A stretch of 64,000 bases of DNA from an uncultured cyanobacterium (GTDB lineage: Bacteria; Cyanobacteriota; Cyanobacteriia; Cyanobacteriales; CAWCAG01). This document shows, piece after piece, positions 16,101 to 19,100 of this stretch. The position numbers are program-made. The DNA lies in contig CAWDOD010000002.1 in NCBI GenBank assembly GCA_963803805.1, positions 960,001-1,024,000 of the forward strand, written 5' to 3'. Within the stretch, counting starts at the first letter, position 1; every line of letters starts with the position of its first letter.

Positions 16101-19100
16101 AATTAATCCAGTTTAGAGTCTCCGTGCCGAAAATAGATGAAACAAATTTGGTCAGCTATCAAACCCTACTTGCGCTGGTTCATTTTAGGGGGAACATTAT
16201 TTTTCTTACTCCAAACCTTAAAAGATCGTTGGCGAGAAGTAGCTGAAGTTCGTATTGATGCTAATGGCTGGGCTATTTTAGCTATCGCCTTAGTAGTTAC
16301 TTTGATGGCGCATATTTGGTCAGGTTGGGTTTGGACTTGGATTCTCAAAGCTTTTAAACAACCTGTATCTCAACGTTGGGCTTTGGAAGTTTACCTGAAA
16401 ACTAATATTGCTAAATATTTACCGGGCAATGTTTGGCATTATGCCGGGCGTATCTCGGCTATTACCGAAGCGGGAGGTTCTATAGGGGTAGCAAGTCTTA
16501 GCGTCCTATTAGAACCACTTTTAATGGCAGCCGCAGCTTTACTAATTGCCCTTCTTAGTGGTAGCTTAGGGTTCATTTCCACAGCCCCAAATCCCCTCAT
16601 CCTCGCCCTACAAATTGGTGGTTTAATTGTGGTTTTGTTAGGAATCCACCCCCGGTTTCTCAACCCAGTGATTAAGTTTTTAAACCGTTCAAAAAAGGTG
16701 ACAGAAACTGGTGAAGTGAAACTAGAGCATTATCCTCTGTTACCTTTATTAGGAGAAGTAGGTTTTCTTCTCTGGCGGGGTAGTGGTTTTCTGTTAACTT
16801 TGCTAGTTCTTTTTCCTGTCACCCTTCCCCAAATACCACAACTCCTCAGTTCCTTTAGTTTTGCTTGGTTATTAGGATTAGTTGTACCTGGTGCGCCGGG
16901 AGGTTTAGGCATTTTTGAAGCAACAATTATTGCGCTTCTGGGCAACCAAGTTTCACCCGGTTTAATTTTAACTGTTGTGGCTATATTTCGGATGGTAAGT
17001 ATTTTGGCAGAGTTAGCAGGGGCTGGTTTGGGGGTTTTGAGTGAACGTGCTTTTGCCAAAAGAATCCAGTAATTGTATTAGTCGCTGAAAACTATTTCGC
17101 AAATGTTTCCGGAGAGTGAGAATTCTTAATGTTCTCTTTTTTAGCAATTTTAGTTAAGTGTAAGGTTAAGCATATTCTAAAAAGCACAATTGCTTGGTAA
17201 TGGTTCGGCACTCGCCAGAGAAGTAGCAAAATCTGTAGGTAAAGTTACCTCAGAAAAACCATCTTGAACCGTTCCTTTTTGGGCCCTTGAACTATAACCG
17301 TCAGGAGACATATGGACTCGGACAATTACCTCTTGTTGGGGTTGAATTGCTACAGTGCCTCCCGTGCGGGTGAATGGTTGTTCTTCTACATGGGAGTGTA
17401 ACAGAACTCGGCGATACAATAGTTGTTCATCAGGGGTAATTACTTCCCACCAGTTAGCATAGCGATCGCATCCACTATCAGGACTACTAACTGTAACGGC
17501 AAAGGTGTAATTATTAGCTTCTCCTGTGGCTTCAACTTTTAAAACCTGAGCAGGATTATTTTGCTCTAAAATGGGTTGGGGTTGGGACACTTGTGACTCA
17601 TTCGTTGTCGAACATCCACCGCAAATTAGGATGAGAGCTAAACTTACAATCTTAGTCATATTAAATATTTACCCTAACTTTTCTCTATTGTGTAATTGCT
17701 ACCTTGATGGGAACGAAAGAGATGGGAATGTTGGGGATGATAAAGCTGCGATCGCACTTTTTGATCAGCTTTTAAGGCAGGACTAATTATATAAAGAGTA
17801 GTACGAATTAAATCTTGTTCTTGAGTAATTTTAGCCATTTCTTCAAGAGTAACCATCAAGACTTTTTCATCAGGCCAACCTATGCGAAAACAGATAGCCA
17901 CTGGGGTATCAGGGGGATAATGCTGAAGTAACTTTTCCTGGGCCGCTTCTACATGACGGGCAGCGAGGTAAAGGCAAAGACTCCCTTGGTGGGCAGCTAA
18001 AGAGGCTAAATCCTCCGACTCTGGTACAGCAGAAGCACGACCGCTAATACGGGTTAAGATAATTGTTTGTACCAAGCCCGGTACTGTCAGTTCCGTTTGT
18101 AGTGTGGCTGCTGCGGCTTGAAAGGCACTGATTCCTGGTACTAATTCAAAAGGGATTCCTGCTTCTTTTAAAGCGTTCATTTGCTCATGAATAGCGCTGT
18201 ACAAACTCAAATCTCCAGAGTGTAAACGTACCACAATGCGATTAGCTTTTACCCTTTCAATCATCAAAGGTAAAATTTCTTCTAAGGTTTTGTTACCAGT
18301 ACGTACTAACTCCGCATCGGGGGGTACATCTTGCCAAATTTGTTGAGGAACTAAAGAATCAGCAACTAAGATTGTATCTGCTTGTTGCAAAATTTTTAGG
18401 GCTTTAACTGTTAGTAAATCTGGATCACCAGGTCCAGCACCAATGATATAAACGGCTGGGGTTAAGGAAGAATAAGAAGATGAAGACATGAATATAAGTT
18501 AAAAGTTAAAAGTTGTTGGTGGAAGGCGATTTTATCTAGTTTGGTAAACTCTTCCGGATCTGAACCCAAAAGCGAAGTAATAAAGAAGTGGTAGATGCAC
18601 CCTGGTTAAGCTCTGGAGTTTTCACTTCAGAGCTTTTTTTGTTACTAATTATTCCTCTAATTTCCTAAAGTTAAATAAGAAAAAGAAATATCTGATTACT
18701 TTCCGGATCTGAACCCAAAAGCGAAGTAATAAAGAAGTGGTAGATGCACCCTGGTTAAGCTCTGGAGTTTTCACTCCCAGAGCTTTTTTTGTTGCTAATT
18801 ATTCCTCTAATTTCCTAAAGTTAAATAAGAAAAAGAAATATCTGATTACTTTCCGGATCTGAACCCAAAAGCGAAGTAATAAAGAAGTGGTAGATGCACC
18901 CTGGTTAAGCTCTGGAGCGAAAACTCCAGAGCTTTTTTTGGTTTTGGGAATTATTTAAAATTGAGCGATCGCCCTAACTCATAGTTGATTTTTTCCGAGT
19001 AGAAATCACATTGGGAAGAGGACGCTTAAAGCCATAGAGCCAAATTAGCCCAGCTACACCGAGGGTAATAGCAATTAAACTAATAACCTGAGCAATGCGT

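Follow-up and report, generated by a model that had tools for sequence, protein, structure and literature searches.

An NsiR1-family small RNA array in a nitrogenase-less cyanobacterium, a likely output of the HetR-HetZ circuit

Results

Three tandem NsiR1-family genes

In the window, that is the whole 64,000-nucleotide stretch of DNA analysed here, three direct repeats in tandem, each about 150 bp long (18479..18927, plus strand), lie between a tetrapyrrole methylase gene (17674..18489, minus strand; PF00590, 171.6 bits), divergent from the array, and the prolipoprotein diacylglyceryl transferase gene lgt (18974..19786, minus strand; PF01790, 275.8 bits), which is convergent with it. Rfam and repeat searches both confirmed the three tandem NsiR1-family units that a first-pass annotation had placed at 18553-18940. 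The Rfam model RF02399 (60 positions, gathering score 39 bits) gave three matches in the window, all on the plus strand and all over that score: copy 1 at 18589..18641 (44.4 bits), copy 2 at 18738..18791 (44.6 bits) and copy 3 at 18888..18940 (47.1 bits). Copy 1 consists of the 5' seed UGGUAGAUGCACCCUGGUUAA, a terminator hairpin (stem at 18608-18635 in the terminator scan) and a U-run. Folding gave -17.9 kcal/mol (z -2.78) for copy 1, -17.0 kcal/mol (z -2.27) for copy 2 and -19.8 kcal/mol (z -3.35) for copy 3, whose terminator stem is at 18907-18934, so that the window copies fold more stably than shuffled sequences. The first 16 nt are those of the RF02399 consensus UGGUAGAUGCACCCUG, as previously claimed and as seen in the Rfam alignments of the window copies; alignments, terminator scan and folds together reveal the NsiR1 layout of this 5' sequence followed by a Rho-independent terminator, and the predicted RNA is about 53 nt long in each unit, each with its own terminator.

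Every unit also has its own putative promoter. TCCGGA hexamers of the DIF1 / sigma-HetZ type -35 are found on the plus strand at 18553..18558, 18702..18707 and 18852..18857, all matching the pattern TCCGGA-N32/33-TAGATGCA and all 39 nt upstream of TAGATGCA; in unit 1 there are 30 nt from the end of the hexamer to the 5' end of the Rfam model (18589). An AT-rich -10-like TAATAA (18578..18583, plus strand, in unit 1) is present in units 2 and 3 as well, and a AATAAAGAAG block is kept among copies of this type, called class A below. A promoter scan of 18400-19050 found no promoter of the TTGACA/TATAAT type. TCCGGA being palindromic, the minus strand at 18553..18558 also reads TCCGGA, facing the methylase gene. 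Taking 18628-18777 as the reference unit, the repeat search gave 63% for 18479-18628 and 96% for 18778-18927; units this alike (96%), set against a single copy next to lgt in G027, a genome of the same genus, mark the array as a recent local expansion.

Other family members in the genome

The sequence itself shows how the genes are built, that they belong to the family and how many there are, that nif genes are missing and het genes present, and how these features are distributed over genomes. Genome-wide, RF02399 gave 14 matches at E<=1, eight of them over the cut-off (41.9-53.4 bits) at the places already named in the first-pass annotation. The latter counted ten NsiR1 genes; its loci stand, while the count is too low, about 13 members being found (7 class A, 5-6 class B). 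Likewise its class B box, 41-42 nt before the core, is where it was said to be, in 5-6 copies rather than three. Those missed are at C10:382082-382137, C2:608825-608885 and C2:609153-609213, the last of them degenerate, and near C2:609010 there is also a decayed remnant. Class B copies score mostly below the RF02399 cut-off (22-42 bits). A core of the GTAGATGCA(C/A)CCTG type was recognised by eye in 13 of the 14 matches, and TAGATGCA[AC]CCTG occurs 13 times in this genome, 12 times at RF02399 matches and once inside an ORF. TCCGGA or TCCTGA lies 38-39 nt upstream of the TAGATGCA core in all seven class A copies, as had been reported. Reversed-pattern controls for both classes gave no match in this genome. 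The hexamer alone shows no enrichment in intergenic DNA, which makes up 14% and holds 96 of the 553 sites. Judged by these features, the loci are genuine NsiR1-family genes in two promoter classes.

Gene content of the host

The description of the host as lacking nitrogenase genes was correct: nifHDK are absent, PF00148 gives two matches only, and the best match to the nifH model TIGR01287 (216.9 bits vs a cut-off of 394) adjoins a chlN-like gene. Neither was nifH found in the same-genus genome G027 or in G059 of the same family. The single PKS gene and the three KS domains were also recovered (three PF00109 matches, one in a 1988-aa frame), and the HetR equivalog score of 553.8 bits was reproduced. 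Host HetR is 74-75% identical to Nostoc HetR and 78-79% to that of Spirulina or Lusitaniella; being no closer to Nostoc than to these, it does not make the host resemble a heterocyst former. On the translation it retains Arg62, His69, Glu71, Lys73, Arg74 and Lys76. The patX-like ORF announced upstream of hetR is there (76 aa, with ERGSGR, directly 5'), with TCCGGA about 48 nt before its ATG. The host thus appears to be a nitrogenase-less cyanobacterium outside the heterocystous family and without the heterocyst-glycolipid PKS, a non-heterocystous status that is deduced from gene content, not morphology.

Although the first-pass annotation had not identified hetZ and hetF, both are present, hetZ as three paralogues. 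A lenient Sigma70_r4 scan led to a 401-aa HetZ-related protein, and tblastn from there to the paralogues: HetZ (NF037963, 552.4 bits, cut-off 550), HetZ-related (NF037964, 621.9 bits, cut-off 612) and HetZ-related 2 (NF037965, 616 bits, cut-off 400). A HetZ-family sigma factor, which a sigma-HetZ promoter class demands, is therefore encoded in the genome. No hetZ was reached through candidates adjoining GGGG-N5-CCCC sites or lying behind TCCGGA-N16-18-TAnnnT, and the operon at C3:408.5-414 kb, taken as a candidate, proved to be a MglA/roadblock-type cluster. For hetF the best candidate lies on contig C4 (206940-208736, 572 bits), with no family member near it, so that the arrays are indeed not beside hetF, and the Nostoc arrangement, an array upstream of that gene in which one copy runs antisense to the hetF 5' UTR, is not found here. 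Both hetZ and hetF are apparently split by a 1-nt frameshift in the assembly; the sole covering contig of DNA run X1 has an extra A and lacks the hetZ frameshift, which suggests an error of the assembly. The window itself contains a HetF-like paralogue (173.8 bits), 29 kb from the array.

Class A promoters and sigma-HetZ

The sigma factor HetZ is described as recognising T-35 C C G G A-30, with some positions replaceable, and its consensus as TCCGGA from -35 to -30, N16-17, TGNA, N7-9 and the start (PMC13342950). The hexamer distance in the window fits this consensus provided that transcription begins at the 5' end of the Rfam match (18589), and with the same start, taken from the Rfam model, the -10 word of the window copies is AGTA, i.e. 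two of the three specified bases of TGNA. In our own reading TGNA is poorly matched in many other class A promoters, so that, unlike in the published DIF1 consensus, the -10 half is matched here only in part, relative to predicted starts. The DIF1 / sigma-HetZ promoters of hetR, patS, patX, sigC and the hep genes likewise have TCCGGA about 35 nt before the start, and they tolerate variants at T-35, G-32 and A-30, which fits the TCCTGA and TCCCGA seen here (PMC7377430, PMC13342950). Like the DIF1 genes, patX of this genome has TCCGGA upstream, and a DIF1 promoter has been predicted before patX-hetR in the nif-less Leptolyngbya BL0902 (PMC11298460).

Data from Anabaena bear on this assignment. 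Dataset S2 of PMC13342950 has a HetZ ChIP peak over nsiR1(1-12) that is reduced in a hetZ mutant. However, the same source marks nsiR1 expression as 'up', not down, in the hetZ4-201 mutant, and sigma-HetZ is therefore not simply required in Anabaena, where a second HetZ' exists (PMC13342950). In our order sample the exact class A pattern TCCGGA-N32/33-TAGATGCA was found in 80 of 151 genomes, vs three reversed-pattern control matches in all.

Class B promoters and the HetR box

Class B copies have instead a GGGG-N5-CCCC(TCA) palindrome 13 nt 5' of an extended -10. An alignment of 30 loci gave the consensus GGGGTGACACCCCTCA followed by TGnTATAnT, and the pattern GGGG-N5-CCCC-N24-31-TAGATGCA occurs in 77 of the 151 genomes vs one control match. 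In this genome GGGGTGACACCCC or variants precede five class B copies, each with the GGG-N5-CCC core of a putative HetR site, the core that HetR needs for binding (PMC4649674, PMC4192349). The box has 13 of 17 positions in common with the hetP site GAGGGGTCTAACCCCTC and shares with the HetR sites of hetP and hetZ both GGG-N5-CCC and the CCCCTC flank (PMC4192349, PMC4649674). It differs from them in its left flank (GGGGG vs GAGGGG) and in standing directly 5' of an extended -10, before an sRNA gene; its centre near -33 is an unusual position for an activator. In the papers and searches covered we found no report of a HetR site before an sRNA gene, though older papers may mention one, and a genome scan for GGG-N5-CCC followed by an extended -10 upstream of protein genes produced no clear result. 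Read on the opposite strand, the box and the A-rich flank 5' of it could also form a weak hairpin. One exact GTGAGGGGTCTAACCCCTC is found elsewhere in this genome, at C2:1363120-1363138.

The class B pattern is present in 75 of the 87 HetR-bearing genomes and in two of the 64 others, both fragmented. The reading of the two promoters as HetZ-type and HetR-box seems to gain real comparative support from the genomes described next.

Distribution of NsiR1 relative to HetZ, HetR and nifH

We compared 293 genomes, of which 151 sample the order and 151 the class (142 new). Over all of them NsiR1 and the HetZ family occur together in 176 genomes and are jointly absent from 114, with one genome having NsiR1 only and two HetZ only. 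The corresponding numbers are 93 both, one NsiR1 only, no HetZ only and 57 neither in the order sample (NsiR1 over the cut-off), and 90, none, two and 59 in the class sample. Against HetR, in the order sample, we counted 84 genomes with both, 10 with NsiR1 only, three with HetR only and 54 with neither; against nifH, 31 with both, 63 with NsiR1 only, 22 with nifH only and 35 with neither. NsiR1 tracks the HetZ family almost perfectly and does not track nifH. NsiR1 exceeds the cut-off in 63 of the 98 nifH-less genomes of the order sample, and the genome studied here is therefore no special case.

Genomes with a single factor keep a single class: those with HetZ and without HetR keep class A only, and those with HetR and without HetZ class B only. 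In family f33, where one HetZ-family gene but no HetR was found, the 17 distinct copies listed from five genomes are all preceded by a hexamer like TCC[C/T/G]GA and never by the box, and class B is absent from all six HetR-less f33 genomes keeping class A. Conversely G030, G061 and G084, with HetR found and HetZ not found, have a single class B gene each and no class A, while their congener G104, with both factors, has both promoter classes. G139, with neither factor, has no RF02399 match better than E 0.07. These reciprocal cases amount to two lineages only, whose kin are not independent. The failure to find HetR or HetZ in G009, G038 and G069 probably reflects fragmented assemblies.

Discussion

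NsiR1 of Nostoc/Anabaena sp. PCC 7120 is reportedly the subject of Ionescu et al. 2010. It is described as lying upstream of hetF, with one copy antisense to the hetF 5' UTR, and as showing HetR-dependent, heterocyst-specific expression after nitrogen step-down (PMC9045159, PMC6596454), and it was still called heterocyst-specific in 2024 (PMC11797042). The copies presented here are likewise about 55-60 nt long, begin with the identical 16 nt and carry a terminator hairpin, and in both genomes there are several slightly divergent versions (PMC9045159, PMC6596454); as in PCC 7120, the window array is made of direct repeats in tandem, and a separate DIF1 promoter with TCCGGA at -35 stands before every copy (PMC9045159). 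In contrast, the array has three copies rather than 12 and lies between the tetrapyrrole methylase gene and lgt rather than upstream of hetF, the host lacks nif genes and a PKS cluster for heterocyst glycolipid, its HetR is unlike that of Nostoc, and there is a second set of copies in which a HetR-type box replaces TCCGGA.

The presence of NsiR1 in such a host had been regarded as unexpected. The nif-less host is real, but the family has already been published from non-heterocystous strains and is not unheard of outside heterocyst formers: Table S3 of a 2016 study has 38 homologues in 89 genomes, 27 of them heterocystous, hence 11 non-heterocystous, including Trichodesmium IMS101, Arthrospira PCC 8005 and Oscillatoria PCC 7112 (PMC4734099), and a 2021 paper adds an expressed 57-nt NsiR1-like RNA in nif-less Limnospira (PMC8400943). 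The latter, RNA162 of Limnospira indica PCC 8005, is likewise an NsiR1-family RNA of a filamentous, hetR-bearing host that neither fixes N2 nor forms heterocysts; what that paper presents of it is one annotated RNA and its radiation response, whereas here promoter classes, a copy census and a link to HetZ and HetR are given (PMC8400943). We found no earlier report that both promoter classes are widespread, nor of NsiR1 tracking HetZ, of one class being kept in single-factor genomes or of complementarity to the hetR leader, though older literature may mention the hetR-NsiR1 pairing.

Our preferred explanation, which we consider probable, is that the window holds three recently duplicated NsiR1-family sRNA genes that are an output of the HetR-HetZ circuit and not a device of heterocysts or N2 fixation. 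That the copies are instead remnants in decay, neither expressed nor used any longer, from an ancestor that formed heterocysts or fixed N2, would agree with the lack of nif genes, with arrays that, unlike in Nostoc, do not adjoin hetF and with the visible decay of the class B array at C2:608.8-609.4 kb; it is however improbable, given that the window array has recently expanded relative to the single copy of G027 (its units are given as 96-100% alike, with 63% for 18479-18628 in the repeat search), that hexamer, seed and terminator are intact in all three units, that 54 genomes combine HetR with an NsiR1 match over the cut-off yet lack nifH, that the family persists in 22 family codes within the order and in many others throughout the class, and that nif-less Limnospira expresses an NsiR1-like RNA (PMC8400943). 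Even harder to believe is that the RF02399 matches are false, a short conserved word beside any terminator. The model is short and variable beyond the 5' 16 nt, class B scores are low, and 11 of 14 control genomes have matches at E<=1, but none of the 14 has one over the cut-off, 12 of the 13 core occurrences in this genome coincide with matches, the hexamer distance is the same as in high-scoring tandem arrays of family f7, and BLAST homologues in non-heterocystous strains were found independently (PMC4734099).

A less improbable objection, though still an unlikely one, concerns the class B palindrome, which might serve a different regulator as operator or form a small bidirectional hairpin, the RNAs being made from the extended -10 alone. 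TGnTATAnT could work without an activator, the palindrome is centred near -33, its opposite strand, a hairpin plus T-run, resembles a weak terminator, and the HetR ChIP-seq consensus is loose (PMC4192349). Against this stand the 13-nt distance to the -10, fixed over the 30 aligned loci, the presence of the required GGG-N5-CCC and of a CCCCTCA flank as in hetP (PMC4192349, PMC4649674), the full GTGAGGGG-N5-CCCC(T/C)CA of genus g31, the near restriction of the pattern to HetR-bearing genomes and its absence from the HetR-less f33 genomes that keep class A.

If the HetR-HetZ reading is right, each window gene would combine an alternative-sigma promoter with TCCGGA at -35, a single-stranded 5' seed GUAGAUGCACCCUG and an intrinsic terminator; class A (seven copies, including the window array) would be transcribed by RNA polymerase with a HetZ-family sigma factor, class B (5-6 copies) would be directly controlled by HetR through the box, and the set of about 13 genes, alike in seed but of two promoter types, would supply RNAs acting in trans. 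The match of factor to promoter, the timing of RNA synthesis and the pairing partners are what we infer. Nearly all filamentous cyanobacteria have hetR, patX and hetZ. Their role without heterocysts has been called a mystery (PMC11298460). The comparison of about 290 genomes suggests that NsiR1 belongs to an older HetR/HetZ control circuit, common to filamentous cyanobacteria with or without heterocysts, and not to heterocysts as such. If the family does follow HetZ and HetR rather than nitrogen fixation, each regulator having its own promoter class, NsiR1 would be better described as part of a conserved multicellularity circuit, the two promoter classes would be native read-outs of HetR and HetZ activity in non-heterocystous species, and the window array would be one ordinary member of a wider pattern. 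It is also conceivable, and we propose it tentatively, that NsiR1 is the RNA arm of an ancient HetR/HetZ-sigma circuit predating heterocysts, with two promoter classes and a feedback loop between the seed and the hetR leader, in which the predicted pairing would close a post-transcriptional loop on HetR in heterocystous and non-heterocystous filaments alike.

Predicted targets

In this genome a duplex scan of all 4449 start regions found no target that beats shuffled seeds, and no near-perfect seed complement was found in its 5' UTRs. The hetR leader ranks 125 of 4448 in this genome alone, the signal emerging only across many hetR loci, where the shared seed is complementary to a conserved box of the leaders. 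In many families this box is AUYRGGGUGC, some 105-150 nt 5' of the start codon, and in Nostoc it is CCAGGUGUAUACUACC, near -70. We found neither box nor seed strings in main texts of the literature. By analogy with hetF and alr3234 in Nostoc, the conserved hetR-leader box and other mRNAs of the circuit are most likely the targets, and the hetR leader, if it is a direct one, could be tested by standard reporter assays. The hetF upstream region pairs weakly, at -16 kcal/mol.

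The NsiR1 array in the window

A repeat search of the window revealed three head-to-tail units of ~150 bp in a 485-bp gap, which is flanked by two minus-strand genes, one for a tetrapyrrole methylase (17674-18489) and the other lgt (18974-19786). Every unit carries the hexamer TCCGGA (18553-58, 18702-07 and 18852-57) with an AT-rich TAATAA 19 nt past it, and a match to the NsiR1 family model RF02399 (cut-off 39 bits) at 18589-18641 (44.4 bits), 18738-18791 (44.6 bits) and 18888-18940 (47.1 bits). The first 16 nt of these RNAs are identical to the family consensus, and they are predicted to form a small hairpin at the 5' end and a terminator hairpin, with an unpaired stretch in between (folding energy -17 to -19.8 kcal/mol, z-scores -2.3 to -3.4); the terminator hairpins of units 1 and 3 were recovered by a terminator scan as well, while a promoter scan of the array region found no promoter of the TTGACA/TATAAT type. 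Since a genome of the same genus (G027) has one copy at its lgt-adjacent site, the triplet must have expanded locally and recently; the array genuinely belongs to the NsiR1 family.

The palindromic TCCGGA of unit 1 can also be read on the minus strand (18529-18558) as TCCGGA-N18-TAGATAAAAT, with the start of the tetrapyrrole methylase gene 40 nt further on; it may be a divergent -35 element shared with that gene, or a chance occurrence. Elsewhere the window holds a Cyano-1 (Yfr2-family) RNA (3996-4072, minus strand; 51.9 bits, cut-off 41) and a tRNA (1119-1192, minus strand).

NsiR1 copies across the genome

Throughout the source genome RF02399 gave 14 matches at E<=1, eight of them above the cut-off, and 13 have a common core. 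Two classes can be told apart. In class A the hexamer TCCGGA (once TCCTGA) starts 38-39 nt ahead of TAGATGCA; to this class belong the window triplet, a pair at C2:932868 and C2:932982, C2:13490 and C10:556577 (C numbers are contigs of this genome). In class B a GGGG-N5-CCCC box starts 41-42 nt ahead of the core and is followed by TGnTATAnT, with an RNA body that contains CCCUGAUGACUGGGAGAG; its members are C2:160790, C3:60391, C10:381857, C10:382082, C2:608825 and a degenerate copy at C2:609153. The ten copies claimed by the first-pass annotation are real family members, but it named only three of class B and missed three more; its list also lacks a decayed remnant and, downstream of a gatB-like ORF, a fourth box that has no RNA core. 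The intergenic region after this ORF (C2:608700-609500) holds a decaying class B array, in which a good copy is accompanied by a remnant, a degenerate copy and that fourth box.

Many of the 68 GGGG-N5-CCCC sites of the genome belong to a short repeat, TTTTATTGGGGGACTAGCCCCCCAAACCC, that is scattered over the genome in at least 8 copies (for example C2:224892, 225198, 225504 and 1426146; C4:204210 and 412185; C6:85931; C11:410616) and has no relation to the class B boxes. An exact hetP-type HetR site, GTGAGGGGTCTAACCCCTC, lies at C2:1363120-1363138; a 213-aa ORF starts 29 nt beyond it, with one of 266 aa next, and neither ORF has an NCBIfam match.

Gene content of the host

The host had been described as nif-less with a single PKS gene, and both statements hold. 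PF00148 matches only two chlB/chlN-like genes, the top match to the nifH model, beside chlN, reaches 216.9 bits where the cut-off is 394, and nifH was not found in the same-genus or same-family genomes either. One of three ketosynthase matches is a PKS, and therefore no heterocyst-glycolipid cluster is present. HetR is encoded (553.8 bits; 80% identity to an uncultured MAG, 78-79% to Lusitaniella and Spirulina records, 74-75% to Nostoc), with a 76-aa PatX-like ERGSGR protein directly upstream that is itself preceded by TCCGGA. There are three HetZ paralogues (HetZ 552.4, HetZ-related 621.9 and HetZ-related 2 616 bits), a 347-aa ORF after hetZ that is a patU candidate lacking a family match, and HetF (572 bits, model cut-off 1200). 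Judged by its gene content, the organism is a nif-less, probably non-heterocystous filamentous cyanobacterium.

Both hetZ (C11:306078-306088; 1579-1589 of locus L030) and hetF (C4 near 208740) appear split by one missing base in a short homopolymer run. At the hetZ break the extra A is present in the sole contig covering the site from X1, an assembled DNA sequencing run, at a depth of 15/15; hence we take both breaks as assembly indels. Indel errors are probably present in the assembly, and other genes and the lengths of U-runs may suffer from them too.

A 542-aa protein in the window (47756-49384, minus strand), one of 39 CHAT-domain matches in the genome, is weakly HetF-like (NF045509 173.8 bits, cut-off 1200); its gene is a paralogue and not hetF itself.

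Distribution of NsiR1, nifH, HetR and HetZ

Among 151 genomes of the order, a fixed set that included the source genome, NsiR1 was above the cut-off in 94 (22 family codes), nifH present in 53, HetR in 87 and the HetZ family (E<=1e-40) in 93. NsiR1 and nifH occurred together in 31 genomes, NsiR1 only in 63, nifH only in 22 and neither in 35. The corresponding figures for HetR are 84, 10, 3 and 54, and for HetZ 93, 1, 0 and 57. A class-wide sample of 151 genomes (142 new) contained 90 with NsiR1 and 92 with HetZ: both in 90, NsiR1 only in none, HetZ only in two, which are fragmented assemblies of one genus, and neither in 59. Pooling gives 293 distinct genomes, 176 with both, one with NsiR1 only, two with HetZ only and 114 with neither; these counts stand without a test statistic because kin are not independent. 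The sole genome with NsiR1 above the cut-off (E 1.3e-8) and no match to HetZ or HetR, G077 of family f18, may represent a transferred copy, an ongoing loss or a spurious match.

Reviews link NsiR1 to heterocyst formers, as in passages of PMC6596454, and text from a recent paper still terms it heterocyst-specific (PMC11797042). Nevertheless, Table S3 of PMC4734099 counts, in its NsiR1 row, 38 homologues among 89 genomes, with 27 of the 38 in heterocystous strains, a point on which section 15 of the main text is silent, and an expressed NsiR1-like RNA is reported in nif-less Limnospira (in part of PMC8400943), so that the bare presence of homologues outside heterocyst formers is not new. DIF1 promoters and hetZ-patU are described for nif-less Leptolyngbya in a portion of PMC11298460. 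To find the array in a nif-less organism is no anomaly but the rule among HetR/HetZ-bearing cyanobacteria, as was partly visible in published supplementary data.

Promoter classes and the factors predicted to read them

Both classes are general. The exact class A pattern was found in 80 of the 151 genomes of the order (3 control matches), the class B pattern in 77 (1 control match) and both in 66; among 57 HetR-positive, nifH-negative genomes they occur in 49 and 50, respectively. In f7, a family with Nostoc-type features (long arrays, HetR 617-629 bits), 7/7 genomes have class A and 3/7 class B. Thirty aligned class B loci keep the promoter (an A-rich stretch, GGGGTGACACCCCTCA, 13 nt, TGnTATAnT), and conservation extends to the RNA, with its stem sequence GGGAGAGUC...GGCUCUCC.

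In family f33, six genomes (G033, G063, G086, G106, G124, G141) have a single HetZ-family gene and 3-6 NsiR1 copies each, and HetR was not found in them (E<=1e-60). At the class A position, each of the 17 distinct copies displayed for five of these genomes has TCCCGA, TCCTGA, TCCGGA or a one-off variant (mostly one of the first two), and none has the class B box. Conversely, in genus g31 three small genomes (G030, G061, G084) have HetR and no HetZ match, with exactly one family member apiece, of class B, behind GGTGAGGGGATTGTCCCC(C/T)CAGG, and none of class A. Another g31 genome, G104, encodes HetR as well as HetZ and carries copies of either class, and G139, with neither factor, gave no RF02399 match better than E 0.07. 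These four combinations, from two lineages only, fit an assignment of class A to HetZ and class B to HetR.

Published work, as far as the available parts go, agrees in that the sigma factor reading TCCGGA is HetZ, whose -35 element tolerates some substitutions (PMC13342950), and that GGG-N5-CCC is indispensable for HetR binding (PMC4649674, PMC4192349); the six DNA-contact residues named in the HetR-binding literature are kept in the HetR of the source genome, counted by eye. Dataset S2 of PMC13342950, in the part available, lists a HetZ ChIP peak over nsiR1(1-12), 'down' in the hetZ mutant. Against the assignment, however, the same dataset has nsiR1 expression 'up' when hetZ is mutated in Anabaena, the match to the -10 word TGNA is poor, and the class B box is centred near -33. 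From phyletic patterns and published work, with start sites that we infer, class A is predicted to be read by HetZ and class B by HetR.

Possible pairing with the hetR leader

Since the seed is common to both classes, they should share targets. In Nostoc, according to sections of PMC9045159, hetF (antisense) and alr3234 are known targets, and NsiR1 overexpression raises HetR. Target prediction in the source genome alone was not informative. Across genomes, the 17-nt seed is predicted to pair with hetR (-300..+30) far more strongly than shuffled seeds: -17.3 kcal/mol on average over 24 diverse loci against -12.5 +/- 0.77 (best shuffle -15.05), and -17.5 against -12.95 +/- 0.89 (best shuffle -15.7) in a second, independent set balanced by family (20 genomes, 18 family codes), 0/300 shuffles reaching the real value in either. 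Reversed targets gave -12.7 kcal/mol, the region -660..-330 gave -13.0 and the hetR coding sequence -15.8, the last indicating that part of the effect is due to conserved sequence alone. Pairing of the seed with the hetR leader is thus a prediction and not a finding of regulation. No earlier report of this complementarity, the conserved HetR-box class, the near-perfect NsiR1/HetZ coupling or the reciprocal single-factor cases was found in the literature that could be reached; all are computational results.

The putative sites, with the sequence AUCGGGGUGC, CUCAGGGUGC or AUUAGGGUGC, lie roughly 105 to 150 nt ahead of the hetR start. A conserved box, AUYRGGGUGC, complementary to the seed, is present in hetR leaders of many families (loci L032-L111 and L223-L242), 17-22 nt past a TATAAT box in the hetR loci displayed. 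It lies at about 177084 of C9 in the source genome, -116 from the hetR start, and its Nostoc counterpart is CCAGGUGUAUACUACC at about -70.
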